From NCBI RefSeq assembly GCF_000015805.1, contig NC_009073.1, forward strand, positions 1,410,001 through 1,442,000: 32,000 bases of DNA, read 5' to 3'. This document shows, in pieces, positions 10,004-32,000 of this stretch. Below the pieces are notes generated by a model. That model did no database searches, had not been told where the DNA came from, and worked only from the letters and a program-made list of their open reading frames with translations. Within the stretch, counting starts at the first letter, position 1; each line of letters begins with the position of its first letter. The translations under genes and the position numbers were made by a program. Source of the stretch: Pyrobaculum calidifontis JCM 11548 (GTDB lineage Archaea > Thermoproteota > Thermoprotei > Thermoproteales > Thermoproteaceae).

Positions 10004-10021
10004 ATGTGGGAGAAATATCCC

Positions 10022-10029
10022 ATATTTAA
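10022..10029 (-). promoter_or_regulatory. TATA box (TTAAATAT on minus strand) for the ABC importer operon
   Basis: Centred 22.5 nt upstream of ATG 10003. The same octamer and spacing occur at cbtB. Confidence 0.45.
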
Positions 10030-10255
10030 CAATTTCCATAAGAGATTTAACGACGGGCGAGGTGCCCTCCGTGATGAGCATGGGAACGGCGTATGTGTGA
10101 AGAGGGCTTGATTAACTGACGTCTACTGGAGCTCTGTCCTCGCTTGGCTGTAGCCGTTTGGGCTAGCATTGTGCGAGTGGGGAGCCTTGACTGCGGCTCT
10201 GTCATGCAAACAACTCACTATGCTCGCCGCATTAAGTGGCTGGCGCGGGTAATTG

Positions 10256-16467: not shown

Positions 16468-17051
16468 AGCCTCCTAAGGGGGGCAAATATAGATGTTAAA
16501 ATCGCCAGCGAGCTCCAGAACAGCGCCCAAGACGCCAGGGAAAGGCCTTGGAGGGCCCTCAGCTCTGGCACAACTCCCGCGTATTTGTCGGGGAGAGTGA
16601 AGCTTGGAAATAGGAGGGGGCCAGCCCCAAGGGCCGCGGCGCCTGCGACTGCGGCAAGCCCTCCCCTCAGCACCAACAGAAGCGCAAATAGGTTGTAGAG
16701 CAGATACGCACCGTGCACCGCCTCTCGCCACCACACCGGCTCCACGTAGGAGACTCCATGCGGAGTGGGGAGCCACTTGAGGCCTGGTAGGAGGGAGAAG
16801 GCCACAAACATAAGCGCGGCCGTCTTGGCCACGCCGTGGCGCATGGACAAGTAGTGGAAAGGAGCAGCCCACGCGGCCCCAAGGGCCATGGCCACGAGCG
16901 GGAGAGCCCACCCTGCGTATTCCTCCTCCCCCTCAACCACGGCCAGCTTGTCGTGGAGTAACTCCGCCAGGGGGGCCGCGAAGTAGTAGAGGAAGGCCAG
17001 CTGGACCAGCGCCGCCAGTGCCCCGGCCACGAGGGCCAGCCTCAGTGACAT
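16455..17051 (-). CDS. cbtA: putative cobalt transporter subunit CbtA-like membrane protein
   Basis: Polytopic membrane protein following a CbtB-like gene at the head of the cbi operon. The loop LLPGLKWLPTPHGVS resembles the CbtA P-x-LKYP-x-NPP region. Assignment is from pattern and context only. Confidence 0.55.
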   Translation of the reverse strand: MSLRLALVAGALAALVQLAFLYYFAAPLAELLHDKLAVVEGEEEYAGWALPLVAMALGAAWAAPFHYLSMRHGVAKTAALMFVAFSLLPGLKWLPTPHGVSYVEPVWWREAVHGAYLLYNLFALLLVLRGGLAAVAGAAALGAGPLLFPSFTLPDKYAGVVPELRALQGLSLASWALFWSSLAILTSIFAPLRRLWRS

Positions 17052-17269
17052 GGTATACCAAGGAGGTGTCTCAGCTCGTGTATTGCGTTGTATATAGGCG
17101 CTGGCACTATCTTCTGAAGAATTCCCCCGAGCGCCGCGTCAATCACGGCGGGGTAGAGGAGCACGGCCAGAGTAACCCCCGCCGCCGCAAGGGCGAGCGC
17201 CGTCTTTAGAGGAAAACGGCTTGTCTTCTGCGCCAGTTTAAGGCCTAGTTTTTTGGTTTTAATTTTCAT
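17042..17269 (-). CDS. cbtB: putative cobalt transporter subunit CbtB-like small membrane protein (75 aa)
   Basis: I trim the start to ATG 17269, which has a TATA box 22.5 nt upstream. One TM helix and a C-terminal His/Cys motif IHELRHLLGIPCH, resembling the CbtB C-terminus (H-x-x-RH-x-x-G-x-PCH). The rest of track ORF 17042..17716 is antisense to cbiE. Confidence 0.6.
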   Translation of the reverse strand: MKIKTKKLGLKLAQKTSRFPLKTALALAAAGVTLAVLLYPAVIDAALGGILQKIVPAPIYNAIHELRHLLGIPCH

Positions 17270-17287
17270 AGTTGGGATATTTCTCCT

Positions 17288-17314
17288 ATATTTAAGCTTT
17301 TTCAGATTTAAATA
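17288..17314. promoter_or_regulatory. compact divergent promoter pair (TTAAATAT for cbtB; TTTAAATA for cbiE)
   Basis: The 66-nt intergenic region is AT-rich. The minus-strand box 17288-17295 lies 22.5 nt from ATG 17269. The plus-strand box 17307-17314 lies 25.5 nt from ATG 17336. Confidence 0.5.
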
Positions 17315-17335
17315 CCTGAAAAATTCTCTACCCCC

Positions 17336-17971
17336 ATGCTGTACATAGTGGGCGTGGGGCCTGGAGACCCCTCTCTGGCCACGTTGAAAGCCGTAGATAC
17401 AATCCGCGGGTGCAGAGTGGTGTTGGGCTGGCGTAGCGTGGTGGAGAGGTTTAAACACCTGCTTGATGGAAAGGAGGTGGTTTATTTGACCTATGGGAAT
17501 CAAGAGGCTGAGTTGAGGAGGGCGGCCGAGAGGGCCGCGGGCGATGAGGTCTGCCTCTTGGTGCATGGCGATCCCCTGGTCTCCGACTGGGAGCTTCTTG
17601 AGAGGGTAAGGGCGCTTGGCGTAGATTTCGAAGTGGTGAACGGCGTCTCCTCTGTAAACGTGGCGCTTGGAAGAGTGGGGCTGGACTTGGCTCAGGTGGT
17701 GTTTCTCACCATGCACGCCTCAAGGCCGCAGGACGTAGCCGAAGTGGCTTGTGTTGCAAGGAGCAGGGCGCTTGTAATTTTCCCTCCCCCTGGCGGAATT
17801 AGGCGGCTGGCAGAGGCGTTGATCTCGCTGGGCATGGGCAAGTGCCGCGCCGTGGTGCTGGAAAACCTTACTCTGCCGGGGGAGTGGGAGTGGAGGGGGT
17901 CTGTAGAAGAGATGGCAGAGCTCGACGCAGGGGACCTCGCGGCCGTCGTGGTGGACTGCCGTGTCTCTTGA
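17336..17971 (+). CDS. cbiE: cobalt-precorrin-7 C5-methyltransferase
   Basis: Tetrapyrrole methylase (MLYIVGVGPGDPSLATLKAV…HGDPLV…NGVSSV) of CbiE size, and divergent from the cbi operon. Confidence 0.85.
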   Translation: MLYIVGVGPGDPSLATLKAVDTIRGCRVVLGWRSVVERFKHLLDGKEVVYLTYGNQEAELRRAAERAAGDEVCLLVHGDPLVSDWELLERVRALGVDFEVVNGVSSVNVALGRVGLDLAQVVFLTMHASRPQDVAEVACVARSRALVIFPPPGGIRRLAEALISLGMGKCRAVVLENLTLPGEWEWRGSVEEMAELDAGDLAAVVVDCRVS

Positions 17972-18902
17972 CCTGCTGTGGAGGGGGGTTGCCGTAGTGT
18001 ACGCCTCAGAGGCTGGGCGGCATCCCGCCGAGAGAGTGGCCGAGTCGCTGAGGGGGGCGGGCGTGGCAGCATATATCTTCAGGTACGGCCAGTTGGAGGA
18101 CGTCTGGGGATGCTACGACGCGTATGTGTTCGTCATGGCGCTGGGGGGCGTGGTGAGGTGGCTCTGCGGCAGACTGGTGGACAAGGCGGCGGACCCCCCA
18201 GTCGTGGTGGTGTCCCACGACTTAGGCCACGTGGTGCCGGTGGTGGGCATGCACAGGGGGGCCAACGGCTTGGCCATAGAGCTGGCGAAGCTTCTTGGCG
18301 CAACTCCAGTCTTGACAACGGCCGCTGAGGCGGCGGGATTTGCGCCCGTCGAAGACCTCGAGAGGGCGCTACTGTGCGGCTTAGATCCGCGAGACGCCTT
18401 AGAGGTCTACCGGGCGCTTGCGTTGGGCAAGACGGTGTGCGTCGACGCCCCTCTTCCACGCCCCCTCCCTGGCTATAGGCAGGGCAACGACTGCGACGTG
18501 GTGGTGTGGGTGGGTTGCGATGGGGAGATGTGTTGTAGGCCGTGGAAGATTTACGCAGGCTTCGGCGCCACTTCTACGGCTACCGTAGAGGACGTAGTAG
18601 AGGCTATTCTACAAGCTATGAAGGCGGTGGGGGCAACGACTCTGGAGGCCGTTGCGTCGATAAAGCCTCTCGTCTATCAAGTGGCCGAGAGGCTGGGAAC
18701 GAGGCCCATCTTGCTTAACCCGGGGCAACTGGCGAGGGATCGGTGCCTCTCGCCGCCTCTTGAAATCGCCAAGGCTACAGTGGGCGCGGGAAACGTGGCT
18801 GAAGCATCTGCGCTAGCCGCGGCGGGCCCCCGCGGCTTTTTGCTCTACAGAAAGAGATCCTACAAGCGTCGGGTAACTGTGGCGATAGCCGCATCAACCT
18901 AA
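17961..18902 (+). CDS. cbiG: cobalt-precorrin-5A hydrolase
   Basis: GTG start overlapping the cbiE stop. Three-part CbiG architecture, with a C-terminal CobE-like segment (FGATSTATVEDVVEAILQAM…VASIKPL…). Confidence 0.8.
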   Translation: MSLDLLWRGVAVVYASEAGRHPAERVAESLRGAGVAAYIFRYGQLEDVWGCYDAYVFVMALGGVVRWLCGRLVDKAADPPVVVVSHDLGHVVPVVGMHRGANGLAIELAKLLGATPVLTTAAEAAGFAPVEDLERALLCGLDPRDALEVYRALALGKTVCVDAPLPRPLPGYRQGNDCDVVVWVGCDGEMCCRPWKIYAGFGATSTATVEDVVEAILQAMKAVGATTLEAVASIKPLVYQVAERLGTRPILLNPGQLARDRCLSPPLEIAKATVGAGNVAEASALAAAGPRGFLLYRKRSYKRRVTVAIAAST

Positions 18903-20241: not shown

Positions 20242-21255
20242 TTATTGCCTCTCGCCCCCATACGCCTTTTTGTAGAGGGATAGATACACCGAGGCCAGCA
20301 ACGCCGACATTATGTCGTCTGCAAAGGGGGCGAGCTCTCTAAAGGCGCCCCTCTTCTTCACCCGCTCGACCCAGTAAGTGGTCAAGACTGCTTGGAATCC
20401 CCCGAGGTAGTCCGCCAGCGCCACACCGAGGAGCTCGTCTGCGACAAGCCTAGGCGAGTCGCTTTTGAACTCCTCCGCCGAGAGCCCTGGGATGAGGCCC
20501 CTTGTGCCCATGGCGTCCAGCTCAGAGGCGGCCAAGATGAGGGCCCAGACGTTTGGGTCTTTGAGGAATTTGTCAAGCTCTCTCAGCTCTTCCCCCTCCT
20601 TCACTGGCAGAGGAGCCTCCTTAAGCAAGGCGGCGAAGGCTTGCGAGAACTCCCTCCTAGTGGCCCCGAGCGCTCTTTCAAAGAGGTCGTAGGCGTCCAA
20701 AGCGACGACAAGCTCGTAGACGAGCTGCGTAGCCCTTTGCCCCAGCTCGGTGGCGGGGCCGGCGTGATGTATCGACTCTCCTTGCCTCTCCGGCACGGCT
20801 ACTAGAACCGCGTCGGTGACTGTGCCTGGGCTCCTCATGCCGTTGCATCTGGCCAGCCTGTCCACCGCGGCTAGGCACTTGGCCTCCACCGCTGTCCTCA
20901 GGAGGTCTACCATGCCCCACTTGGACAGCGGAGCGTCTGCTATAACGGCCACGTTGATAGTCCCCCCGACGCAACTCGTCGGCGACATGGCCACTGTGGC
21001 CGCCGCGGAGACGGGGCCCTCGGCCCTTACGCCAAAGGACTCGGGTAGCTTTGCCGCCGTTAGAAAGACCGCAGTGTCTTCCCCCAGCGCCTTCCTCACG
21101 CGGGCCGCCTCTGCCTCGTAGGTATCGGAGAAGTCCTTGTCCACCTGCTTAAACGCTATTCTAGCGATCTGGGGCGGCGTGGGGAGAGAGGAAATGGCGC
21201 GGTGCGCCTCGCCGAGTTCCACCACCACTAGTCCCCTCTCTTTACGTATCTCCAT
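20242..21255 (-). CDS. cbiZ: adenosylcobinamide amidohydrolase (CbiZ) fused to a PgpA/CobZ-like C-terminal domain (CbiS-like bifunctional architecture)
   Basis: The N-terminal approximately 200 aa carry CbiZ hallmarks (GGTINVAVI, TAVEAKCLA, SPGTVTDAVLVAV). The C-terminal approximately 130 aa carry a PgpA-like motif (PFADDIMSALLASVYL). The gene overlaps the cobT 3' end by 28 nt. Confidence 0.8.
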   Translation of the reverse strand: MEIRKERGLVVVELGEAHRAISSLPTPPQIARIAFKQVDKDFSDTYEAEAARVRKALGEDTAVFLTAAKLPESFGVRAEGPVSAAATVAMSPTSCVGGTINVAVIADAPLSKWGMVDLLRTAVEAKCLAAVDRLARCNGMRSPGTVTDAVLVAVPERQGESIHHAGPATELGQRATQLVYELVVALDAYDLFERALGATRREFSQAFAALLKEAPLPVKEGEELRELDKFLKDPNVWALILAASELDAMGTRGLIPGLSAEEFKSDSPRLVADELLGVALADYLGGFQAVLTTYWVERVKKRGAFRELAPFADDIMSALLASVYLSLYKKAYGGERQ

Positions 21256-22238
21256 ACGCGCTCGTACTCGGCCTCCACCAGCTTCAACACGTCGCGCCCC
21301 ATGGACTGGGCGTAGAAGAGCGCCCCGCCCATCCCCACCCCCTCCTTAACGGCGCCTCTCTCATAGGCCCTAAGCCCCTCGTACTTCGACTCGCCGAAAG
21401 AGGCGGTGGCCACGTGGACGTTTTTGACCCCTACCTCGGCCATTAGGCCGAGGAAGTCCGCCGACTTGTCTTCCACAATCCACCTAGTGGTAACCACATG
21501 CAACTTGGCGAGGTCGCCGCCCATGGCCTTGTAAATCGCCGCGGCCGCCGCCATCTGAGTACCCCCCGCCAATACCGGGACTCCGCCCGCCTCAGCGACG
21601 CCCAGCGCAATTGCCGCCAAGGCGGGGTGGACCGGGTCGCCCAGCTCGCATACCACCCTGAGCGGGTCGGGGGGCGGCTTGGCCCTCTCGAGGGCATCCA
21701 TTACGACTTGGGCCTTAAGCTCCTTTGGATTATTGGGCGAGGCGGAGCTGGTCCTGCCCCAAGCGTTGTATCCCAGCCCCACTAGTATGGCCATGGCCGT
21801 GGTGGTTCCCCCTGGTATAGACTCTCCGAGGTACACTACGCCGAGGCGGCCCAGCTCCCGCCCGAGCATCCTGCCCCTGCTCGCCAGCTCCTCGGCCGCG
21901 GCGCAACTCATGGCAGGGCCCCTCCTTATGTCCCCGCCTGGCTCGCCGCCTAAGTCCACATACGGCACCCTCGGCCTCACTCTAGCCCCGGCGTTTACCA
22001 CCAGCTTAGGCACGTCGAAGGCCACTGCCCTTGTGACAAGCGCGGGGGTGGGAATGCCGTCGGGCGTCACTGGCACTACGTCGAGGGTGATAGGCCTCCC
22101 GGTGAGGAGATATTCCACGTCCAAGGCGGGGGTATAGTGGGTAAGCTCAGGAGTAGCCCCCGCAACAGTTATGCCGGGGATTAGAGAGACGTCTGTAGTC
22201 CCAATCACCACGGCGAATATGGCTGGCTTTAAGTTCAT
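21228..22238 (-). CDS. cobT: archaeal-type nicotinate-nucleotide--dimethylbenzimidazole phosphoribosyltransferase (UPF0284/CobT-like)
   Basis: N-terminus FAVVIGTTDVSLIPGITVAGATPELTHYTPALDVEYL is typical of the archaeal CobT-like family. 336 aa, with its own TATA box. Confidence 0.85.
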   Translation of the reverse strand: MNLKPAIFAVVIGTTDVSLIPGITVAGATPELTHYTPALDVEYLLTGRPITLDVVPVTPDGIPTPALVTRAVAFDVPKLVVNAGARVRPRVPYVDLGGEPGGDIRRGPAMSCAAAEELASRGRMLGRELGRLGVVYLGESIPGGTTTAMAILVGLGYNAWGRTSSASPNNPKELKAQVVMDALERAKPPPDPLRVVCELGDPVHPALAAIALGVAEAGGVPVLAGGTQMAAAAAIYKAMGGDLAKLHVVTTRWIVEDKSADFLGLMAEVGVKNVHVATASFGESKYEGLRAYERGAVKEGVGMGGALFYAQSMGRDVLKLVEAEYERVWRYVKRGD

Positions 22239-22278: not shown

Positions 22279-22932
22279 CTACATGTGCCACGTAACTATA
22301 TACGCCACACGTGAGACCTCTAGAAGGTAGCCGAAGACGTCTCCGTTTGCCCCACCGAGGTGTTGATATGCAACAGCATACAACGCCAAGGCAACGGCAA
22401 GGGCGGCAAGCGTAGCGGCTGGCCTTAAGCATATTATCACGGCTAGGGCTGGGAGCGCCAGCGGCCAGGTGGACCTCGCGCCGTCTATAAACAGCGCCCC
22501 TAAGCCGGGCTTGAATGGCTTGCTAAACGCCGCTACGGTCACTATCAGTGCCTTTGAGAAGACCTCTGCCAAGAGGAGCTGAAGAGGGGACGCGGTAGAG
22601 GCTGTGGCGACTGCGTATGTGGCCACCACTGCGAATATGCCGCCAGTGCCCCTCCTGGGGTCTTCCAACACGGCGCGTGCCCTCTCCCTGTCTCTGACCA
22701 TCAATGCGTCGGCCACGTCGGCGAGGCCGTCGAGGTGGTTGAGCCCGGTCATCAAGAGGAGTAAGAGATAGGCCACGTGGGGACTTGCGCCGAGCCACAG
22801 GGCGGCGGCCGCTGGCCCCGCCACTAAGGGGGGTACCACGTAGGGGAGCGCCCAGGCGCATTTGAAGTCCAGCTTGGCTACTCCCGCCGGTATTATTGTG
22901 AAGAAGGAGAGGAGCGCCCTTAGGCACTGCAT
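22279..22932 (-). CDS. cobS: adenosylcobinamide-GDP ribazoletransferase (cobalamin synthase)
   Basis: I trim the start to ATG 22932 (MQCLRALLSFFTIIPAG…), which overlaps the cobD stop by 13 nt. CobS motifs are present (LMTGLNHLDGLADVADAL; GGANGDVFGYLLE). The Arg-rich 96-aa extension in the track ORF lies inside cobD. Confidence 0.85.
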   Translation of the reverse strand: MQCLRALLSFFTIIPAGVAKLDFKCAWALPYVVPPLVAGPAAAALWLGASPHVAYLLLLLMTGLNHLDGLADVADALMVRDRERARAVLEDPRRGTGGIFAVVATYAVATASTASPLQLLLAEVFSKALIVTVAAFSKPFKPGLGALFIDGARSTWPLALPALAVIICLRPAATLAALAVALALYAVAYQHLGGANGDVFGYLLEVSRVAYIVTWHM

Positions 22933-23840
22933 ATGGCCTTTATCAACACGTCGTTTAGCTCCGGAGTTTTGATAGATACGCGGTAGGCGTCTGCAAGGCC
23001 GTGGGTCCACAGCGGCCTCACCTTGACCCCCTTGGGCTCTCTGCCCTTCACCACGAAGAAGTGGACGTCGGTGGGGAGCGGGCTCGCGCACTTGGCGACC
23101 TTCTGCCACACCCGCGGGAGCTCTTCGGCTATGTAGGCGAGGGTCCTCTCTCTGTGCTTCTTTATGCCAGATGCGCCTAGGTGGTAGATGGCGTAGTCTG
23201 CTATGGAGTTGAGACGCCAAGGCGCTTTGAGGCCCGGCGGGGGGTCGCCCAAGTATGCCCCGACGCGGAGGCCCGGCGCCGCGAGGAGTTTGCCGTAGGA
23301 TTTCACCACGGGCACGTCTGGGGCGGCGGACTCGCCCCTTGTGAAGTCTATGAAGGACTCGTCCACGAGAAGCGCCGCCCCTCTCGCCTTGAGGCGGCGC
23401 GCCAAGTCGAGCACCTCGTCTCTCCTCACGTACCTCCCCAGCGGATTGTTGGGGTTTGACATCACCACTAGGTCCCCCGAGGCGGCTTGTAGGGGGTCCT
23501 CCACTAGGACGTAGCCGACGCCGAGCAGCTGAGCCACTCTCACATAGTCGGCGTAGTTGGGCCAGGGGATTACAATGCGCCGCGGCTTAAGCGCCGCGAT
23601 AGCCGCAAGCAGGGCCTCAGTCGCCCCGTTGAACACAGTCACCTCAACCCCCTCGTACTCCCTCAACACCTCCTCCGCCAAATTGGCCGGGAAGCGGAGG
23701 TAGACGCCCCTCTCCACGGCCTCTCTCACGTAATAAATCAAGCCCTCGGGAGGGCCTATGGGGTTTGAGTTGTCCGAGAAATCTGGCATGACGCCCTCCT
23801 CCGCCCAACTGGTGCCCCCGTGATAGAAGACTACAGCCAT
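22920..23840 (-). CDS. cobD: L-threonine-O-3-phosphate decarboxylase (class I/II aminotransferase fold)
   Basis: HGG near the N-terminus, SNPNNPLG, and a PLP-lysine region (KSYGKLLAAPGLRVGAY). 306 aa with no extra domain. It sits in a B12 nucleotide-loop context. Confidence 0.85.
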   Translation of the reverse strand: MAVVFYHGGTSWAEEGVMPDFSDNSNPIGPPEGLIYYVREAVERGVYLRFPANLAEEVLREYEGVEVTVFNGATEALLAAIAALKPRRIVIPWPNYADYVRVAQLLGVGYVLVEDPLQAASGDLVVMSNPNNPLGRYVRRDEVLDLARRLKARGAALLVDESFIDFTRGESAAPDVPVVKSYGKLLAAPGLRVGAYLGDPPPGLKAPWRLNSIADYAIYHLGASGIKKHRERTLAYIAEELPRVWQKVAKCASPLPTDVHFFVVKGREPKGVKVRPLWTHGLADAYRVSIKTPELNDVLIKAICSA

Positions 23841-23936: not shown

Positions 23937-24761
23937 TTACCGCTCTTCATAGTAGCCGCACATGGAGCAGTAGCCGTCGAATTGAGCGTAGCCGCATCTA
24001 GGGCACCCCTCGGCGCTCCGCAGGTATTGGAAGCCCTTTGCTTCAAAGAGGCGGCAGAGGTAGGCGTAGGGGCTCCCAGCCCTCTTCTCCATCTCCTCGT
24101 ACAGGCGGTTGAAGCAACTACCCTCCTCCAGCGGGGTCTTCCTCCTCGCGGCGATTAGCGGCGCCACGCCCTTTAGGGCCTCTCTAAGCGGCTTTTTGTC
24201 TAAGACCTCGGCGGCTGGCAGAGCGAGCGCAAATTTCACCACCTCGTTCTCTGTGAAGGGGAGCACCGCCTCTAGGCCCAAGGCCTGGGCTATCTGGCGG
24301 CTACAGAACCTCCACTTTGCCACTATCTCGCGGCGTTTTTCCTCAAGCGCGTGGAGGGGATATTTGCGGTAGAAGGAGTAGCCGAGGAAAAGCTCGTCTC
24401 CCCCGTCGCCTGTACACACCCTCCTAAGCCCCAAGTCCCTCGCCCTCTCAAGCCCAGCATACTGCACTGCGCAGTTTACGAGCTCCATGGCGTTGAAGTT
24501 CTTCAACACCTCCATGGCCCTCTCCACGTAGTCGAGCGCCTCTACAAGTCTCACTTGCACAATGGAGAGGGGGGTGGAGAGGCGGGCCGCGGCGTATAAG
24601 GCAAATGGCAAATCCCCCTGGCAACTGACCAGCGACACTGTTATGCCGACGGGCACATGTCCTATCCGCCTCGCGGCGTAGGCCACCAAAGTGCTATCAA
24701 TTCCCCCGGAGAGGAGGACGCCGTCACACTCCGCATACTTAGACAAGAGGTCTACAATCAC
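23937..24761 (-). CDS. asparagine-synthetase-like PP-loop ATP pyrophosphatase lacking the glutaminase domain, with a C-terminal zinc ribbon
   Basis: GTG start in a GTGA overlap with the upstream stop. PP-loop LLSGGIDS at residues 16-23, AsnB-type motif CTGDGGDELFLGY, and a C-terminal CPRCG…CSMCG. Confidence 0.8.
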   Translation of the reverse strand: MIVDLLSKYAECDGVLLSGGIDSTLVAYAARRIGHVPVGITVSLVSCQGDLPFALYAAARLSTPLSIVQVRLVEALDYVERAMEVLKNFNAMELVNCAVQYAGLERARDLGLRRVCTGDGGDELFLGYSFYRKYPLHALEEKRREIVAKWRFCSRQIAQALGLEAVLPFTENEVVKFALALPAAEVLDKKPLREALKGVAPLIAARRKTPLEEGSCFNRLYEEMEKRAGSPYAYLCRLFEAKGFQYLRSAEGCPRCGYAQFDGYCSMCGYYEER

Positions 24762-25366
24762 GGCCTAATCTCGGCGATGTAGTACCCCCCGTAGACCGCC
24801 GCAGGCACACACTTTGCCTCAGCTGAGACGACGAGCCTCTTCACCTCTACCACTTGGCTGTGGTACTCTCCGCGCTCCCCTAGGGGGTCGACACTCATCT
24901 TCTTCGCCAAGGCGATAAACTCCTCCACGTTGCTCCCGTCGACTCTTCTACAGAGGAGCTCCCCCGGCCCGCCGATGATGTAAAAGGAGAGCTCCTCCGC
25001 CTCCCTCCTGAGGAGCTCTTCGTGGTCCATCCCCCACAGCGGCTCCTTCAGCGACGCCCCCACTTCGCGCGCCAGCTTCTCCATGTAGCGCAAGTGGTCT
25101 TCCACGTCGACGTCCCCAGCGACAATCACGTCTACGCCCAGCTTCCTCAAGAGGCGGGCCTTTTCCTCAAACTCTCTCCCCTTGGGCAACTTGTGAACCA
25201 CCACGGGGGCTATACGCGAGCCAAACCCCACGGCGAAGCCCAAGTTAGCGATGTGGGGAGAGGGCCTGGGAAACTCGTAGATGAGGAATACAAAGGCGTC
25301 TATGGGCCACTCCAAGAGAGCCGCGTACACGCTCTCTTTGCCCCCGCTGTAGAAGGCTATTTTCAT
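24758..25366 (-). CDS. DUF71/COG2102 (Dph6/MJ0570-like) PP-loop ATPase
   Basis: I trim the start to ATG 25366, which forms an ATGA overlap with the cbiB stop. MKIAFYSGGKESVYA is the SGGKDS PP-loop with D->E. VIVAGDVDVEDHLRYMEKLAREVG and GERGEYHSQVVE match the ATP_bind_4 pattern (GE-x-H-[TS]). Confidence 0.8.
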   Translation of the reverse strand: MKIAFYSGGKESVYAALLEWPIDAFVFLIYEFPRPSPHIANLGFAVGFGSRIAPVVVHKLPKGREFEEKARLLRKLGVDVIVAGDVDVEDHLRYMEKLAREVGASLKEPLWGMDHEELLRREAEELSFYIIGGPGELLCRRVDGSNVEEFIALAKKMSVDPLGERGEYHSQVVEVKRLVVSAEAKCVPAAVYGGYYIAEIRP

Positions 25367-26310
25367 GGGCCTCCAAAAATCAACACTTTTAAATATTGAA
25401 CAATCGTCCATATTAAAAACATGACTACGAAGTAAACCGCGGTGACTGCCGTGGCAAGCTTAACGCCTCTGGCTATGTCGGCCGCGGTGGGCGGCCTCCC
25501 AGAGGGGTTCAAGACGTAGTGCCCCCTCTTTTCCAGTCTCACGCCGAGCGCTCCTGCCATGGCCGACATTGGGTGGCCCGCGTTGAGGCTCTCTGTGGCG
25601 TTGTGCCACCTTAGCCACACTGCCAGGGCCTTCCTCACGTCGCCGCCGGCTATGGGCGCCAGGAGGGCTATCAGTAGGGCGGTGAGGCGGGCCGGGATAA
25701 AGTTCAGGACTGTGTCCGCCCGGGCCGAGACCCACCCCACGTCTTTAAACTCGGGCGTCTTATAGCCTAAAGCGCCGTCCAACGTGTTGGCCACCCTTTG
25801 CCCTAAGGCGCCTAGGGGGCCCAGCAGTACGGCGTAGAAGACCGGTGAAGTGAAGCCGTCCACTAGGCTCTCCGCCAAGCTCTCCAACGCCGCCGACGCT
25901 ACGCCGGCTTCCTCTAGGGAGGATACGTCTCTTCTCACGATGTGACTCACCCACCGCCTTGCCTCTGCCAAGTCGCCTCTCTCAAGCGCCTTCTGCACTC
26001 TGCGGCATATGTCCACCAAGAGCTTGTACGAGATGGAGAACTTGAGTGTAGCGGCGGCCGCCAGAGCCCACGCCAGGGGGTGGAAGGCGGCCAGGGCCAA
26101 AAGCGCGGCGAAGGGGGTCAAATGCGCCGCCTCTACGGCGAGCCACACTGCAATTCCCCACAGCCTGTCCCTCCGCCGCTTGGCCAGCCGTAGCGCCATG
26201 AAGTAGGAGGTGTGCACCGGGTGTATCTTTAAGAGGAGGCCCCGGTGCTCGGGGTACACCACGTCGAGGGCCAAGGCGAGCGCTAGCGCAAGCCAGATTT
26301 CACCAGTCAA
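25363..26310 (-). CDS. cbiB: adenosylcobinamide-phosphate synthase
   Basis: Polytopic membrane protein with CbiB/CobD-family features (LALDVVYPEH…IHPVH…; GHPMSAMAGALGVRL). Confidence 0.9.
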   Translation of the reverse strand: MTGEIWLALALALALDVVYPEHRGLLLKIHPVHTSYFMALRLAKRRRDRLWGIAVWLAVEAAHLTPFAALLALAAFHPLAWALAAAATLKFSISYKLLVDICRRVQKALERGDLAEARRWVSHIVRRDVSSLEEAGVASAALESLAESLVDGFTSPVFYAVLLGPLGALGQRVANTLDGALGYKTPEFKDVGWVSARADTVLNFIPARLTALLIALLAPIAGGDVRKALAVWLRWHNATESLNAGHPMSAMAGALGVRLEKRGHYVLNPSGRPPTAADIARGVKLATAVTAVYFVVMFLIWTIVQYLKVLIFGGP

Positions 26311-26764
26311 GCCCCCTAATGGCCAAAACCCCCCTCTGGTAGTAGTGTTTGACGTTGTCCAGCCGCGTCACTAAGTCGAAGTAGCCCCCAAAGCCCTCCT
26401 CCCAATACCCCCCAGTGACCACCACGTGGGACCTCAGCCTTGCGAGATCGCCCAAGTGCCGCGGCTCTAGAAGGTCCTGCCTAACCGCGTACAACAGCTC
26501 GTCCAACACGACTACGTCGTAGCTGTCGCCTTGGGAGAGGGCGTACTCCAGGAGGGCGGCGGGGCTCCTTAAGTCGGTGAGATACACAGCGTCTATCCCC
26601 AGCCGCCTCATGGCCTTGTACTCCCCCACCTCCTCCCCCATGTAGAAGGGCGTCTTCATGACTCCCACGTACAGCACCCTGAGCCCGTGGCCCCACGCCC
26701 TCAGCGCTATGCCGAGTGCCGCAGAGGTCTTCCCCTTGCCGCTCCCCGTGAATGCCAGGCGCAT
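26300..26764 (-). CDS. cobA: ATP:co(I)rrinoid adenosyltransferase (CobA/CobO/BtuR type, short form)
   Basis: P-loop FTGSGKGKTSAALGIALRAWGHG, then VVVLDELLYAV and VVVTGG. It heads the late operon, with a TATA box 22.5 nt upstream. Confidence 0.8.
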   Translation of the reverse strand: MRLAFTGSGKGKTSAALGIALRAWGHGLRVLYVGVMKTPFYMGEEVGEYKAMRRLGIDAVYLTDLRSPAALLEYALSQGDSYDVVVLDELLYAVRQDLLEPRHLGDLARLRSHVVVTGGYWEEGFGGYFDLVTRLDNVKHYYQRGVLAIRGLDW

Positions 26765-26813: not shown

Positions 26814-27410
26814 ATGTTGAATATTGCTCGTGTTGCCCTTCGTGGGGCGGAGTTGGAGGCTTTGAGGAGGTATAACGCGAGGCAGATGCTTGTGCCCATA
26901 TTTGTCTACGGGCCTGAGGGCTGCGGGAAGTCCCGCCTTTTTCGAGAGGCCGTGCGCCGCTTTAAGGAGTGGTATCAAGACGGCAAGCGCTTCTAATAGA
27001 TGCAACAATGGACGATGTGTATAAGATATTCGCCGCGTCTTCCCCTGACATGTTGTGTGAAGTCGTGGAAGAGTTTACCGCCGCCGCTTCGCAACAAGTC
27101 GGGGCTGGCCCCTTTTCTGCGCCTCTGGGAAAGCCTGCGGCGTTCTTATGTGCGAGAATTGCGCGGCGTATATACAAGAGGGTTAGGAGGACGTTTTTGA
27201 CAAGCTGTGGCGGCCTTTGGCGTAGCTGAGGTGGACAGAGTGGCCAAGGACATGTACCACACCACAGACCCGCTGAGGGCCGAGGACGTCGACAGAAAGA
27301 TAAACTTCTTCGCCCTCACCTCGGAGGGTGAGTCTAGGAGAGAGTCTCTGGGTAGAGCCCATACGCGACACTGCCAACTCAGTTGCTACCCCGCGGCAGT
27401 CGCCGTCTAA
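26814..27410 (+). pseudogene. decayed, truncated tandem paralog of the downstream archaeal P-loop ATPase
   Basis: 26814-26996 encodes …LEALRRYNARQMLVPIFVYGPEGCGKSRLFREAVRRFKEWYQDG, which is then stopped. The intact copy reads …LEAVKRYNTGQMYLPLFVFGPEGCGKSRLFKEAVKRFKEWYPDG. Homology continues in two other frames (ALLIDAT…; …RKINFFALTSEGESR vs VIVNFFALTSEGYSR). The C-terminal half is missing. Confidence 0.6.
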
Positions 27411-27422
27411 ACAAGCGGAGAA

Positions 27423-27430
27423 GCTTATAA
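27423..27430 (+). promoter_or_regulatory. TATA-like box (GCTTATAA) for the intact ATPase
   Basis: Centred 24.5 nt upstream of in-frame GTG 27451. Confidence 0.35.
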
Positions 27431-27450
27431 CCCCGCGACCTGGCACAAAC

Positions 27451-28491
27451 GTGGAACTCCCATTCATAGGAAGGAAGATAGAACTAGAGGCGGTGAAGAG
27501 GTACAACACGGGGCAGATGTACCTCCCCCTCTTCGTCTTCGGCCCTGAGGGTTGTGGTAAGTCTCGACTGTTTAAAGAGGCGGTGAAGAGATTTAAAGAG
27601 TGGTATCCCGATGGGGTTGCTGTCCTTGTAGACACGAGGAAGAGCGAGCTCGCCGAGGCCGTAATTGCCACCGCGCCCGTAGACGTGAAAAAGCTGGCCA
27701 AGCAGTTAGCCAAGGCCATGTTTAGGAGCCTCTCCCAAATCACGCACTTCGGCGAATTCTTTGCCATCATGGCCACGTCGATACCAAAATACGTCAAAAC
27801 CAAGGACGTAAAACGGATATTCATCGTAGTAGACGAAGTCACCACCACATTCGTCAATGTGGAGGCATATGCCAAATCCATGGAATCCACTATGAACGTG
27901 GGGAGACCAGAGGAGTTGAAAGACGTCATAGTCAACTTCTTCGCTCTTACGTCAGAGGGCTATTCCAGAGGCCTACTGGCACGGCACAGCTACGTCTGGC
28001 AGGCCTATTTGTGGAATCTCCCCAGGCGGGACTTCGAAGAGCTGTACTACAGAGCGAGGGAGCTCTACCCCGGCCCGGCGCCCCCCTTCGACGAGGTGTG
28101 GAAGCTCTATGGCGGGAATCCGAGGGGGCTAGAGGAGCTGGCAAAGCTGGGCTGGGACGTGGATAAGTACAAGCGGCGGCTCGCCGCGCTTAAGGGCTTG
28201 GAGTCTCTTGTCGGTTTGGTGAAGGGGAGGCGCCTAGGCGAGCTCGCGCGGCGGGTGGTAGAGGACGTTGACTACCTCCGCCTAGGCGAAGAGCCCGAGC
28301 TCCACGAGCTAGCCGACTTGCTCATAAGATACAACCTTGTGATGGAGTTGCCCAGAGACCTTGAGCTAGGCAACGAGGTAGACACCCCATTTGAGCCACC
28401 CCCCATAGACAGAGAGCTCGGCGTGGGGAAGCACTACGCATGGCAAGTCCCAATCTACAGAGAACTCTTCGCCAAGGCGTTGGCCGAGTAA
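27451..28491 (+). CDS. archaeal P-loop ATPase (Arch_ATPase/PF01637-like)
   Basis: Track ORF is 27328..28491. I trim the start to GTG 27451 so that the protein begins VELPFIGRKIELEAV, the F-x-G/D-R-x-x-E-L opening typical of this family. Walker A GPEGCGKS, Walker B IFIVVDEV, and GGNPRGLEEL. Confidence 0.8.
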   Translation: MELPFIGRKIELEAVKRYNTGQMYLPLFVFGPEGCGKSRLFKEAVKRFKEWYPDGVAVLVDTRKSELAEAVIATAPVDVKKLAKQLAKAMFRSLSQITHFGEFFAIMATSIPKYVKTKDVKRIFIVVDEVTTTFVNVEAYAKSMESTMNVGRPEELKDVIVNFFALTSEGYSRGLLARHSYVWQAYLWNLPRRDFEELYYRARELYPGPAPPFDEVWKLYGGNPRGLEELAKLGWDVDKYKRRLAALKGLESLVGLVKGRRLGELARRVVEDVDYLRLGEEPELHELADLLIRYNLVMELPRDLELGNEVDTPFEPPPIDRELGVGKHYAWQVPIYRELFAKALAE

Positions 28492-28521
28492 ACCGGCCGC
28501 GCCCGTGTTGGCGTCTCGGGG

Positions 28522-30270
28522 CTATTGTACGCCGCTCTTGCCTTTTCCCAGTCTTTGGGTGTATGCGCGGTTTATTGACTGAAGCGTTAGCACGCCTATT
28601 AGCTTGCCGTCGTCTACCACAGGCGCCCATGTAAGACCCGTCTGGCCTATTACTTGTAAAGCCTCTAGTAGGGAAGACTCGGGCGATACGTGTGGGATTT
28701 TCCTGGCGTACTTTCCAACTCTCCCGCTCTTGCCCAGCAACTCAAATAGGTAGACTGCGCCGAGGAAGTTGCCGTAGTCGTCAACCACTGGTAGCGCTGA
28801 CATACTCCTAGTGGTCATAATTGTGACAGCCTTTTTCACATCGTCGTCGTGTTTTACCACTGGCTCTTTGTCGAGGGCGCAGTCTGCCACTTTCATCTCC
28901 ATGAGTAATGGCACGTGGTACTCCTCTAAGTGGGCTGGCGAATCTCTCCGAGTTGGCACTTGGGATCTATAGAGAGAGTCCTCCCCTGAGACTAGCCGGG
29001 CTACTGCGACGGCGATTATGGCGGCTGGCAGTAAATCGTAGCTACCAGTCATTTCGACTACCATAATTGCCGTGGCCAAAGGCGCTTTTGACGCGGCGCC
29101 AAACAGCGACAGCATGCCCACTACAATGAATGGAGCGGCGTTGGGGGCCAGCGAGGGGAAGAGCGTTTTGAATACTAGGTACATGTCGTATCCCACAAAT
29201 GCGCCTATGACTAAGCCTGGCGCAAATACTCCGCCGCTACCCCCAGAGCCCACGGTGAGAGAAGTCGCTAAGATTTTCAAGAGTGGCAACAAGGCAATCA
29301 ACAACACGGCGGGGAGAATGGGCGAGTAAAACGCGGACGGCGACTCCTGTATTAGTAAGCTGACCCATCCATATCCAACGCCTAGTATCTGCGGCGCGAC
29401 GATGCCTAAGGCACCTACGGCTAAGCCTCCCACAAGAGGTTTTACATAGGGAGAGGTGTGCCAGCTCTTAAACCTATCGTGAAAGTAATAGAAAACTTTT
29501 ACATACACATATGCGACAGCTCCGCTGACGAGGCCCAATAGGGCAAACAGCGGCAGTTGTCTTACGTCAAAGTGCGCTGGGACTTCTCCGAACACTGGGG
29601 TGAAGCCCGTAATAGCGCCGTAGATGGCGTATCCCACAATTGCGGCCACTAGCGCGGGGAAGAGTACCTCAGACTCTACGTCTCGTTTGTACAAGACCTC
29701 TGCCGCAAATAGTGCGCCTCCTATGGGGGCCTTGAATATTGTGCCTATGCCAGCGCCGGCGGCAACCATGGTGACAATTCTCCTGTCGTCGTCGTTTAAG
29801 CGCAAAATGTCGGCAATTATTGAGCCAAGACCTGCGCTTAGTTGCGCCGTGGGGCCCTCTCTGCCGGCGCTTCCCCCCGAGCCTATGGTTACGGCTGAGG
29901 CCACTAGTTTTACAAACGGGACCCGCCTCCTAATGCGGCCCCTCAGTCTGTGGTAGGCGTTTATGGCCGCGTCTGTGCCATGGCCCTCGGCCTCTGGGGC
30001 CAGGCCGTAGACCAATAGCCCAGACAAGAGGCCTCCTAGGCCTGTGGCCACTGGCAAGAGCCATAGTCTCTCGGAAGTTAATGTGTAGTTGCCCAAGCCG
30101 CCCTCGCCCACAGGCCTCGGGAGCTCAACACCTACGATCTGCTCTAAGAAAAATTTTTGGCACAACTCAAGAGCGTAGATAAATGTCAGTGCCGCTACCG
30201 CCGCAACGACGCCTATCAACGTGCCTACGATTATCCACTTGACAAAGTACGGTAGTGTGCTAATGGACAC
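28522..30270 (-). CDS. ClC-family chloride channel / Cl-:H+ antiporter with a C-terminal CBS-domain pair
   Basis: ClC selectivity motifs GSGGSAGREGP and GGSGGVFAPG in a polytopic membrane core. The tail carries two CBS repeats. GTG start with a TATA box 22.5 nt upstream. Confidence 0.9.
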   Translation of the reverse strand: MSISTLPYFVKWIIVGTLIGVVAAVAALTFIYALELCQKFFLEQIVGVELPRPVGEGGLGNYTLTSERLWLLPVATGLGGLLSGLLVYGLAPEAEGHGTDAAINAYHRLRGRIRRRVPFVKLVASAVTIGSGGSAGREGPTAQLSAGLGSIIADILRLNDDDRRIVTMVAAGAGIGTIFKAPIGGALFAAEVLYKRDVESEVLFPALVAAIVGYAIYGAITGFTPVFGEVPAHFDVRQLPLFALLGLVSGAVAYVYVKVFYYFHDRFKSWHTSPYVKPLVGGLAVGALGIVAPQILGVGYGWVSLLIQESPSAFYSPILPAVLLIALLPLLKILATSLTVGSGGSGGVFAPGLVIGAFVGYDMYLVFKTLFPSLAPNAAPFIVVGMLSLFGAASKAPLATAIMVVEMTGSYDLLPAAIIAVAVARLVSGEDSLYRSQVPTRRDSPAHLEEYHVPLLMEMKVADCALDKEPVVKHDDDVKKAVTIMTTRSMSALPVVDDYGNFLGAVYLFELLGKSGRVGKYARKIPHVSPESSLLEALQVIGQTGLTWAPVVDDGKLIGVLTLQSINRAYTQRLGKGKSGVQ

Positions 30271-30288
30271 GCGCTAAAATTAAGGTCC

Positions 30289-30296
30289 ATTTTAAT
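30289..30296 (-). promoter_or_regulatory. TATA box (ATTAAAAT on minus strand) for the ClC gene
   Basis: Centred 22.5 nt upstream of GTG 30270. Confidence 0.4.
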
Positions 30297-30384
30297 GTTG
30301 ACCGCCGTCCGCCGCTCATTCCTATCTCCGTAGAAGACTTAGTTCCGAAAATTTTAAACTCAGCAGTACATAAACGACGTTGAG

Positions 30385-30888
30385 TTGGCTAAGCCTTGGG
30401 TAGACGAGAAGGGCTACATCGCGGCTAGGCTTAGGGAGGCTTTATACGAGGCAGAGTTGGCCAAGGAGTTCCTCCGGAATGGGCTTGTCCGCAACGCCGC
30501 TGGAAAGGCCTATCAGGCGTGGAAGGCCGTCGTAGCGGCCCTAGCCGCCGAGAGGAGGGAGACGCTCGCACGTTTGTACACTGGGGTGAAGCGGCTGAGG
30601 GAGGGCAAGAGGGTGAGCGAGGCTGACTGGGTGATAGCCTTTATGCCTTCGACGAGGTTGAGGGAGGTGGCTAAGGCCCTCTCGGAGGTCTACGGAGACG
30701 AGGTGTACTACGTCACAGAGGTGGCCCTCTCGCTACATGAGTATCAGTACAATGGGCCAGACCGAGAGGGCGTATTCAGCCGGTATAGGACAGACAAGCA
30801 CGCCGCAAAAGACGTAGAACACGTCGTGGCAATTGTGGAAAAGTACGCCGCGTCTATAAAGGCGCGTCTAGACGCCCAGTCTAAATAG
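30385..30888 (+). CDS. PaREP1-family-like helical protein (HEPN-like helical pattern)
   Basis: TTG start. The N-terminal helix pair ARLREALYEAELAKEFLRNGLVRNAAGKAYQAWKAVVAALAA resembles PaREP1/HEPN-type openings. The family call is from memory and unverified. Confidence 0.6.
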   Translation: MAKPWVDEKGYIAARLREALYEAELAKEFLRNGLVRNAAGKAYQAWKAVVAALAAERRETLARLYTGVKRLREGKRVSEADWVIAFMPSTRLREVAKALSEVYGDEVYYVTEVALSLHEYQYNGPDREGVFSRYRTDKHAAKDVEHVVAIVEKYAASIKARLDAQSK

Positions 30889-30933: not shown

Positions 30934-31776
30934 CTATATTGCATCGCACTTGAGGAGCCTTGTCGGCATGTGAGGCAACTGGGCGGTGGGTATCTGGCTG
31001 ATGTGTATGCCCCTGTAGGTGTGCCAAGTGGTTTTCGGGGGGTAGAGAAGGCCGGCGGCGGCCCTCGCCAACACCTCCATCTTCGTCATGTTTACCTCTA
31101 CTGCCCGGTAGTCCACCGGGAGGGCAAATATGGGACGCCCCTCCCTCTTCGCCTTGTTTAACCTGTGGTGTCCATCCAGTACAGTGCACGTCCACGCCTC
31201 TACGGCTATGGGCGCCTCTCCTGCGACGACATCTGGGAAGACATCCTCGTGCGGCCTAAGCGTGTGGGGGTCCATGGGCAGGGGGTACGCAGGTGGGGGG
31301 TCCGCCTCGGCCTCCTCGTAGTCGCGCCACGTGTTTATGTTCATCAACGGCGGCACCTCCACCTCCTCCCACTTGGACATGTTTGGGCTGGGCATCCACG
31401 TCAGTCCCACGTATTGCCCGCTGGCGACTGCCGTGGCCATACGGGGGCGGCTCAGGAGGGGCTTCACGTGGCTGGGCGTCAAGTTGGCCAAGTCGCATGA
31501 GGCAAACAGGGCAGGGGCGTGTCTCTCCGCCAGGCGGACTAAGTCGGGGCCGTAGCCCAAGCCCTCTGTGTAATCCACTGCAAGCCCCCACGTCTTTGCC
31601 AGCCAGACAATTCCGGGGTGCCCCCTGGTGGTGGCCACCACCACTTCGTCGAAGCCAGCCCAGATCAGCGCGGCGGCCACTCTGAGCAACAGAGGCACTG
31701 CGCCCACGGGAAGTAAGCACTTCTCAGGCCTTCCCATCCTCGACCCCCTCCCCCCGGCTAGCACCACCGCCCTCAT
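30934..31776 (-). CDS. cobY: CobY/MobA-like nucleotidyltransferase (probable adenosylcobinamide-phosphate guanylyltransferase) fused to a ParB/Srx-fold domain
   Basis: I trim the start to ATG 31776, which forms an ATGA overlap with the upstream stop. The N-terminal domain reads MRAVVLAGGRGSRMGRPEK…LMNINTWRDYEEAE. The C-terminal domain reads LRPHE…VLDGHHRLNKAKREG. The Arg/Gly-rich 55-aa extension in the track ORF lies inside the upstream gene. Confidence 0.75.
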   Translation of the reverse strand: MRAVVLAGGRGSRMGRPEKCLLPVGAVPLLLRVAAALIWAGFDEVVVATTRGHPGIVWLAKTWGLAVDYTEGLGYGPDLVRLAERHAPALFASCDLANLTPSHVKPLLSRPRMATAVASGQYVGLTWMPSPNMSKWEEVEVPPLMNINTWRDYEEAEADPPPAYPLPMDPHTLRPHEDVFPDVVAGEAPIAVEAWTCTVLDGHHRLNKAKREGRPIFALPVDYRAVEVNMTKMEVLARAAAGLLYPPKTTWHTYRGIHISQIPTAQLPHMPTRLLKCDAI

Positions 31777-32000
31777 TCCTCCTCTTCGCCGGCCTCCTCG
31801 CCGCGTCCCGTCTCGCCGTATAGCTCCCGCCGCCTGGCCTCGAGCAGTTGCTCCTCGCGGCCGGCCAACTTGGCGTATGTGGCCACCTCTACGCCGCGCC
31901 GCTCTGCATACTGGAGGACTTCGCCGACTTTCTCCCGCCACTGGACGTCTCTGAGGAGGTGGTGGGCGAGGACTAGCAGACGGGGCCGCAGGTCCACTAT
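31773..32000 (-). CDS. hypothetical protein, 5'-truncated by the window edge, with an acidic C-terminal tail
   Basis: The frame is open to the window edge (…IVDLRPRLLVLAHHLLRDVQWREKVGEV…GEEAGEEEE*). The stop is ATGA-coupled to the cobY-like gene. No family recognised. Confidence 0.45.
   Translation of the reverse strand: MVDLRPRLLVLAHHLLRDVQWREKVGEVLQYAERRGVEVATYAKLAGREEQLLEARRRELYGETGRGEEAGEEEE

Follow-up and report, generated by a model that had tools for sequence, protein, structure and literature searches.

A CobY-like nucleotidyltransferase fused to a trimmed SerK-like domain in Thermoproteaceae: a candidate L-threonine kinase for cobamide biosynthesis

The fusion gene and its two domains

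The window analysed here, a stretch of 32,000 nucleotides from Pyrobaculum calidifontis JCM 11548 (contig NC_009073.1, positions 1,410,001 to 1,442,000), contains a cobamide (cob) gene cluster and, close to one end, a gene whose product joins two domains: an N-terminal nucleoside triphosphate (NTP)-transferase domain resembling CobY, and a C-terminal ParB/sulfiredoxin (Srx)-fold domain resembling the free L-serine kinase SerK (Table 1). An initial annotation, made from the sequence alone, had described this product as a 280-aa protein composed of two such domains, and the architecture was borne out by profile and structure searches. The C-terminal domain is a candidate for the L-threonine (L-Thr) kinase that would supply L-Thr-O-3-phosphate (L-Thr-P) to cobamide biosynthesis.

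The open reading frame (ORF), as listed mechanically, reaches further 5', to a GTG at 31941. Since all of the aligned homologues (21/21) begin at the methionine of MRAVVLAGG, the ATG at 31776 is taken as the real start of the fusion gene; this ATG shares ATGA with the stop of the upstream gene. An AlphaFold2 (AF2) model of the full-length protein, built on 22 orthologues, had a predicted local distance difference test score (pLDDT) of 92.9 and a predicted template modelling score (pTM) of 0.91.

The N-terminal domain matched Pfam NTP_transf_3 over residues 3-114 (E = 1.7e-16), in agreement with the family named for it in the initial annotation. Two NCBIfam models related to CobY were also matched, in both cases below cutoff: TIGR00454 (E = 4e-9, 36.6 bits against a cutoff of 174.7) and CobY_Meth (NF045495, the equivalog model of methanogen CobY; E = 7e-6, 25.7 bits against a cutoff of 250). 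When the full-length model was compared with the PDB using Foldseek, the Methanocaldococcus jannaschii CobY structures 2MZB and 3RSB came first, with a target-normalised template modelling (TM) score of up to 0.72, and MurU, Rv0371c and MobA ranked just behind them. The nucleotide-binding motif LAGGRGSRMGRPEK is of a type typical of MobA/CobY-type enzymes, and its residues A7, G8, G9, G11, R13 and K19 are invariant across 22 orthologues. With M. jannaschii CobY (MJ1117; 3RSB, 2MZB) the fusion protein has in common the fold, this being the best structural match, the nucleotide-binding motif and the cob-operon context. In contrast, its N-terminal domain is shorter (about 157 aa vs 196) and scores far under the equivalog cutoffs, and the protein carries an additional kinase-like domain. 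On account of the fold and profile matches and of the operon context, the N-terminal domain can be regarded as a divergent but credible CobY, with predicted GTP:adenosylcobinamide-phosphate guanylyltransferase activity, although it is not a textbook member by sequence.

Because the full-length model retrieved only NTP-transferases in the fold search, a separate model of the C-terminal domain was needed (AF2, pLDDT 91.2). Foldseek placed at the top of the PDB matches of this model the Pyrococcus furiosus protein 1VK1, SbnI (6NR6, 5UJE) and SerK (5X0B), with probabilities of 0.94-0.99 and modest E-values of 0.06-0.1; Noc, ParB, KorB and sulfiredoxin came after, and ranks 1-24 were all ParB/Srx-fold proteins. 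A profile built from 18 orthologous C-terminal domains was searched against all PDB sequences and matched only SerK of Thermococcus kodakarensis (5X0B, E = 1.3e-7, together with its E30 mutants) and the P. furiosus homologue 1VK1, SerK being the sole PDB relative detectable by sequence. In the reverse direction, 14 of the 18 domains matched the NCBIfam SerK model (best E = 1.1e-5), and any other family was matched by one member at most. The SerK score of about 14 bits is far below the cutoff of 380, and the fused domain is, judged by its sequence, a distinct trimmed subfamily and not a SerK equivalog.

The ParB/Srx relationship is recovered only by profile and fold methods and not by single-sequence family scans: Pfam ParB_N/ParBc gave no significant match, either with the single sequence or with each of the 18 C-terminal domains. 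By these two methods the fold claimed by the initial annotation is confirmed and narrowed to the free-serine-kinase branch; the domain is a trimmed relative of the free serine kinases and not a generic ParB domain. The possibility of a canonical ParB (a CTP-dependent DNA clamp) or of a nuclease was considered and rejected, there being no ParB_N match, no helix-turn-helix (HTH) and no DNA-related context. The domain, of about 123 aa, is devoid of the HTH and of the C-terminal dimerisation region of canonical ParB.

The HMMER alignment to SerK consists of three blocks. PHE of the fusion aligns with KPHE of SerK, which contains Glu30; VLDGHHR...DY aligns with IVDGHHR...LDY; and the end block, DY...K..V...A..G...PPKTTWH, aligns with SerK 194-226, ending in SPKTTRH. 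Since SerK residues ~100-193 have no counterpart in the fused domain, the latter can be described as SerK minus its inserted domain. Overall, SerK (T. kodakarensis TK0378, 5X0B; P. furiosus 1VK1) and the fused domain have the same ParB/Srx fold, with PHE, DGHHR, DY and PKTT(R/W)H in the same order. The fused domain differs in the absence of the insert of about 95 residues (about 100-193), of a helix after PHE and of a hairpin after DY, as well as in its attachment to CobY and in its gene context, a cobamide operon in place of genes of cysteine/serine metabolism.

The motifs are strongly conserved. PHE is invariant in the fused clade, and its H and E are invariant in the alignment of the wider family described below; at this position the E30A and E30Q mutant chains of SerK score lower in the profile alignment. 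DGHHR, whose codons were found by direct reading of the sequence to lie exactly where the initial annotation had placed them, is likewise invariant. The Tyr of DY occurs in every member of the fused clade and in 152 of the 153 stand-alone relatives. In PPKTTWH, K/R248, T250 and H252 are conserved, and W251 occurs in 12/18 fused members (most Pyrobaculum) where the rest of the family has R/K. Each invariant of the family alignment (H, E, DGHHR, P, K and H) is kept in the fused clade, apart from some changes of K to R in Thermoproteus. E177 and D201, which are aligned with SerK positions and are invariant in both the fused clade and the family, are taken by us to correspond to the catalytic residues E20 and D58 of SbnI. 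What sets the fused clade apart is the loss of the helix after PHE and of the hairpin after DY, both present in all the stand-alone relatives, and the presence of Y254, H258 and S260, invariant specifically in the fused clade. As for cysteines, C20 (in EKC) and C94 (in CDL) are invariant in the fusion protein, and C197 (in WTC) and C277, near the C-terminus (in PLRC), occur in 12/18 fused members.

Distribution and genomic context of the fusion

From 5.8 billion proteins, 24 near-full-length homologues of the fusion protein were retrieved, with identities from 41% to 98% and both domains conserved; those with a named taxon all came from Pyrobaculum or Thermoproteus. The genome survey, which was based on a narrow search pattern derived from the alignment of the C-terminal domains and returned 12 loci, is a sample and not a census. 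Among the loci sampled, the fusion is restricted to Thermoproteaceae (Pyrobaculum and Thermoproteus), and the two domains are contiguous in each of the 13 Thermoproteaceae loci.

The association with cobamide genes is close. In 10/13 loci, cobA is next to the fusion gene or no more than 2.4 kb away (adjacency was seen in L002, L003, L004, L008 and L010-L014), and in 10/13 loci the fusion gene is within 8-10 kb of cobD, cobS, cobT, cbiB or cbiS. Thermoproteus tenax has no spacer at all: the fusion gene overlaps cobA, and cobT, cobD and cobS come next. In a Pyrobaculum aerophilum-like locus (L003) it is located between a BtuFCD-type transporter and a cobA-cbiZ-cobT / cobD-cobS-cbiB cluster, and in P. 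neutrophilum it is divergent from cobA-cbiB.

In the window itself, the fusion gene is about 4 kb from the main cluster, a distance that the initial annotation had entered as a caveat. The distance is correct, but it has lost its weight as a caveat, because in T. tenax and nine further relatives the fusion gene overlaps cobA or is beside or near it, and the gap is therefore a local insertion in this genome. The intervening genes are unrelated: an ATPase_2 gene was recognized by Pfam and a PaREP1 gene by synteny with L001, a relative 98% identical, while the 582-aa ORF at 28522-30270 appears chloride-channel-like from reading of its sequence. L001 is without the channel gene in the spacer.

Beyond the spacer, the cob cluster includes corrin-ring genes in addition to the late genes of Table 1. 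The cobD-like gene, placed by the initial annotation at its present coordinates as a plain 306-aa decarboxylase, was confirmed by its matches to Aminotran_1_2 and to the threonine-phosphate decarboxylase model TIGR01140 (E = 8.9e-39, 133 bits, below the cutoff of 290). The fusion gene is co-located with cobD both in the window and in the loci of the relatives. As already noted in the initial annotation for genes similar to pduX or bluE, no GHMP-type (PduX/BluE-like) kinase was found among the window ORFs scanned, which were long ORFs chosen as likely genes; nor did the scanned genes of the CobD-encoding cluster include any other kinase-like candidate.

Table 1. Features of the window and, in the last eight lines, stand-alone mini-SerK genes of other loci.
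Feature	Position	Strand	Remarks
Fusion gene, CobY-like / mini-SerK-like	30934..31776	-	280 aa, stop codon included
MobA-like NTP-transferase domain, CobY-like	31306..31776	-	residues 1-157
Nucleotide-binding motif LAGGRGSRMGRPEK	31720..31761	-	residues 6-19
ParB/Srx-fold SerK-like domain without SerK insert	30934..31305	-	residues 158-280
PHE motif	31246..31254	-	P175 H176 E177; aligned with SerK Glu30 in KPHE
DGHHR motif	31162..31176	-	residues 201-205; aligned with SerK VDGHHR; invariant
DY motif	31108..31113	-	D222 Y223; aligned with SerK LDY
PPKTTWH motif	31021..31041	-	residues 246-252; aligned with SerK SPKTTRH
Upstream gene, metallo-beta-lactamase-fold, PRK04286 'hypothetical protein' family	31773-32000	-	equivalent L001:9099-10004
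Unrelated genes between fusion and cobA (spacer)	27328..30888	.	ATPase_2, chloride-channel-like membrane protein, PaREP1
cobA, corrinoid adenosyltransferase	26300..26764	-	Pfam CobA_CobO_BtuR; usual direct neighbour of fusion in relatives
cbiB, adenosylcobinamide-phosphate synthase	25363..26310	-	Pfam CobD_Cbib, E = 1.4e-76
ATP-pyrophosphatase-type pair between cbiB and cobD	23937-25411	-	TTX_0299/DUF71-B12 family; asparagine-synthase-like
cobD-like pyridoxal phosphate enzyme, proposed L-Thr-P consumer	22920..23840	-	306 aa; Aminotran_1_2
cobS	22279..23220 (as listed)	-	Pfam CobS on residues 104-308
cobT, archaeal type	21228..22238	-	NCBIfam TIGR00303 and NF003368
cbiS, bifunctional CbiZ amidohydrolase / CobZ alpha-ribazole phosphatase	20242..21255	-	NF038002, E = 2.8e-133, above cutoff; Pfam CbiZ
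Mini-SerK gene	L005:6001-6537
Mini-SerK gene	L006:6001-6504
Mini-SerK gene	L007:6001-6390
Mini-SerK gene	L017:1659-1880
Mini-SerK gene	L018:4327-4548
Mini-SerK gene	L020:5001-5393
Mini-SerK gene	L023:4001-4393
Mini-SerK gene	L024:4001-4522

Some further features of the region were recorded. The metallo-beta-lactamase-fold gene upstream of the fusion was rejected as a conserved partner, as it precedes the fusion only in the window genome and in the 98%-identical relative. The listed cobS ORF is over-extended at its 5' end, with an overlap of about 300 nt with cobD, and the gene call in L001 is 217 aa; the real cobS start is probably internal to the listed ORF. Both L001 and L003 also have the pair formed by the DUF71-B12 and asparagine-synthase-like genes. 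For the DUF71-B12 subgroup, a role in B12 salvage was predicted in 2012 (PMC3541065); no assigned function was found in the literature. Between cbiX/cbiC and cbiG, three consecutive ORFs of 198, 224 and 126 aa (16455-18072, reverse strand) had no match in Pfam or NCBIfam; at the equivalent position P. neutrophilum shows a weak CbtB match, and the three ORFs may be cobalt-transport components. Finally, a BtuFCD-like ABC transporter (ABC_tran, FecCD, Peripla_BP_2) is encoded beside the cob cluster at 7142-10081 on the reverse strand.

Stand-alone relatives of the C-terminal domain

When the profile of the C-terminal domain was searched against 1.84 billion cluster representatives, 1,326 matches were obtained at E <= 1e-3 and 287 at E <= 1e-10. 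The majority are stand-alone proteins of 120-170 aa with the motifs L.PHE, (I/V)LDGHHR, DY and PPKT(T/S)(R/K)H, for which we use the name mini-SerK. Of the named stand-alone members, the great majority are archaeal (Thermoplasmatota, Thermoproteota, Desulfurococcales, Korarchaeota and DPANN). Their annotations read ParB N-terminal domain protein, transcriptional regulator or, in occasional cases, L-serine kinase, and they match the N-terminal part of the NCBIfam SerK model at ~1e-22. In the family alignment, stand-alone proteins such as P0038, P0192 and P0202 are 31-44% identical to the C-terminal domain of the window protein. They have in common with it the trimmed architecture without the SerK insert and the same motifs, whereas they adjoin CysK-like or TrpB2-like genes and retain the helix and hairpin that the fused clade is missing.

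The gene neighbourhoods of the stand-alone members are informative. Eight of the 10 loci examined have the mini-SerK gene (Table 1) directly adjoining a gene for a pyridoxal phosphate (PLP) enzyme of the PALP family. The neighbour is CysK/CysM-like in L005, L007 and L020, TrpB-like (TrpB2) in L006, L017 and L018, and typed to the PALP family level only in L023 and L024. The nearest stand-alone relative examined, P0038, adjoins a CysK-like gene, and in P0032 and P0141 mini-SerK and PALP are directly fused. TrpB2 enzymes are reported to use O-phospho-L-serine. In T. kodakarensis, the partner of SerK is a CysK dependent on O-phosphoserine (PMC5120207). What the members of the mini-SerK family have in common, we infer, is that a small putative kinase provides a PLP enzyme with an O-phospho-amino acid.

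The paper reporting the discovery of SerK found clear homologues to be absent outside Thermococcales and Desulfurococcales (PMC5120207). The gene neighbourhoods of mini-SerK suggest that serine kinase and O-phosphoserine routes to cysteine and tryptophan are much more widespread in archaea than in the two orders originally reported.

Other fusions of mini-SerK were observed with CTP_transf_like (P0119), S-adenosylmethionine (SAM) methyltransferases (P0069 and P0139), a pyrimidine-dimer glycosylase (P0114) and an NAD-binding oxidoreductase domain (P0161). P0027-P0031 are long proteins of eukaryote-like appearance with tandem duplicated mini-SerK copies.

Candidate functions of the fused domain

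We propose, as the best explanation at hand, that the fusion is a bifunctional enzyme of late cobamide synthesis, in which a putative free L-Thr kinase is joined to CobY, and we put the chances of this proposal at about even. The C-terminal domain would phosphorylate a free hydroxy-amino acid on its side-chain hydroxyl, L-threonine being the likeliest substrate. DGHHR and PKTTxH would bind a nucleotide serving as phosphate donor, with the glutamate of PHE as the catalytic base. CobD, the PLP enzyme encoded in the same operon, would decarboxylate L-Thr-P to aminopropanol phosphate, CbiB would attach the latter to adenosylcobyric acid, and the N-terminal CobY domain would guanylylate the product of CbiB. 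Domain identities, motif conservation, the restriction of the fusion to Thermoproteaceae and its operon context were observed directly; the putative kinase activity, its substrate and its phosphate donor are inferred.

The new evidence makes the L-Thr kinase suggested by the initial annotation more plausible, without amounting to proof. This is so because most of the stand-alone relatives examined adjoin PLP enzymes that consume O-phospho-amino acids, as CobD does, and because the fused domain has kept every residue that is invariant in the family, among them the glutamate of PHE and the aspartate of DGHHR. The same logic, in which a kinase feeds a PLP enzyme, is found in SbnI of the Staphylococcus staphyloferrin B pathway (5UJE, 6NR6), a ParB/Srx-fold free-serine kinase that supplies O-phospho-L-serine to the PLP enzyme SbnA and is among the top structural matches of the fused domain. 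SbnI differs in being bacterial and in not being fused to an NTP-transferase, and has an extra C-terminal heme-binding and regulatory region. Salvage of cobinamide via CbiZ is an established pathway that still requires aminopropanol phosphate, and hence L-Thr-P; since CbiZ is encoded (as CbiS) in the same clusters, salvage would also pass through CbiB and need the same L-Thr-P.

The reaction and the role proposed for the fusion are those of PduX of Salmonella, BluE of Rhodobacterales and the extended CobD of Methanosarcina mazei, whose folds are unrelated to that of the fused domain. In M. mazei the L-Thr kinase activity is located on the CobD extension, so that there, as proposed for the fusion, the kinase is joined to another enzyme of nucleotide-loop assembly. 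PduX and BluE have GHMP-kinase motifs in common (PMC10906522). The fusion protein matches no GHMP-kinase family in Pfam or NCBIfam, and the candidate would be a non-homologous replacement of the known L-Thr kinases.

Several points weigh against this proposal. The SerK of T. kodakarensis does not phosphorylate Thr (PMC5120207), and the proposal therefore requires a shift of specificity. Fusions more often join consecutive steps, whereas three steps separate L-Thr kinase from CobY. The loss of the helix and hairpin, and the W in place of R/K in most Pyrobaculum members, could point to a different substrate. It should also be noted that nucleotide binding is by itself no proof of kinase activity, a caution expressed for the ParB fold (PMC12704722).

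In a rival reading, the C-terminal domain would be an adenosylcobinamide (AdoCbi) kinase, acting on the aminopropanol hydroxyl of AdoCbi before guanylylation by CobY. The protein would then be a non-homologous analogue of the bacterial bifunctional AdoCbi kinase / AdoCbi-phosphate guanylyltransferase CobU/CobP, which also combines kinase-like and guanylyltransferase functions in one polypeptide at the same point of the pathway, although CobU consists of one P-loop domain, which is related to neither half of the fusion. Two consecutive steps would be fused, mirroring the logic of CobU; the pTM of the two-domain model suggests a fixed inter-domain arrangement; the two lost elements and the frequent W for R/K fit a changed, larger substrate; the family member P0119 is fused to another nucleotidyltransferase fold (CTP_transf_like); and BtuFCD-type corrinoid transporter genes are near in the P. 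aerophilum-like locus and in the window. However, the relatives and the gene neighbours of the family all indicate small free amino acids, each family-invariant residue is retained, the activity would be largely redundant with CbiZ/CbiS, the archaeal alternative encoded in the same clusters, and the source of L-Thr-P for CobD would be left unexplained. On balance, an AdoCbi kinase appears unlikely. Retention of the ancestral specificity would make the domain a free L-serine kinase, providing O-phospho-L-serine either for an ethanolamine-phosphate-yielding CobD (norcobamide-type linker) or for general O-phosphoserine (Sep) metabolism. Its closest characterised relatives, SerK and SbnI, are indeed L-serine kinases, the CysK-like neighbour of P0038 is in line with this, and Sulfurospirillum is said to make norcobamides through a CobD homologue acting on L-serine phosphate. 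On the other hand, the fused clade is found only in cob operons, and its specific invariants Y254, H258 and S260 and its deletions suggest functional divergence. Norcobamides have, to our knowledge, not been reported from Thermoproteaceae, and the window CobD scores best, albeit below cutoff, against the L-Thr-P decarboxylase model. We regard an L-serine kinase as improbable.

It is also conceivable that the C-terminal domain is not catalytic at all, but a nucleotide-binding, regulatory or scaffold module of ParB/Srx fold that modulates CobY or tethers it to partners such as the membrane-bound CbiB or CobS. In many fusions a ParB-fold domain serves as an NTP-dependent switch or as a scaffold (PMC12704722), the domain is trimmed relative to SerK, and the tight packing against CobY predicted by the model fits a structural role. 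Yet the Glu at the position of SerK Glu30 and the DGHHR, DY and PKTTxH motifs are strictly conserved across roughly 40-60% divergent orthologues. This is the pattern expected from purifying selection on an active site, and it makes a non-catalytic module improbable.

If the L-Thr kinase proposal is extended to the whole family, the C-terminal domain would be the missing L-Thr kinase of Thermoproteaceae, a trimmed SerK joined to CobY. This step would then have a fourth solution, not homologous to the others, and B12 biosynthesis its first enzyme of ParB/Srx fold, and the stand-alone mini-SerK proteins would be unrecognised suppliers of O-phosphoserine to Sep-dependent CysK and TrpB2. This combined picture is put forward tentatively, its chances falling a little short of even.

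The fusion of CobY with a ParB/SerK domain appears to be a new architecture of two known folds, with a predicted new substrate. Full-text literature searches, which included the T. tenax genome paper, found no description of it, in keeping with the initial annotation, which knew of none. The text and supplements available to us of a 2025 survey of ParB-CTPase-fold fusions (PMC12704722) mention no NTP-transferase or CobY fusion, nor Pyrobaculum or Thermoproteus. The database annotations of the fusion protein go no further than NTP-transferase domain protein or CobY.

The source of L-Thr-P in archaeal cobamide synthesis outside Methanosarcina is a gap, for which the fusion provides a concrete candidate; even among bacteria, most verified cobamide producers have no gene annotated as pduX (PMC6461909). 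If the C-terminal domain is truly an AdoCbi kinase, the view that archaea lack that activity would be overturned. If it is an L-Thr kinase, it would bring a new enzyme family into B12 biosynthesis. In addition, the analysis has exposed a large and mostly unannotated family of trimmed SerK-like proteins.

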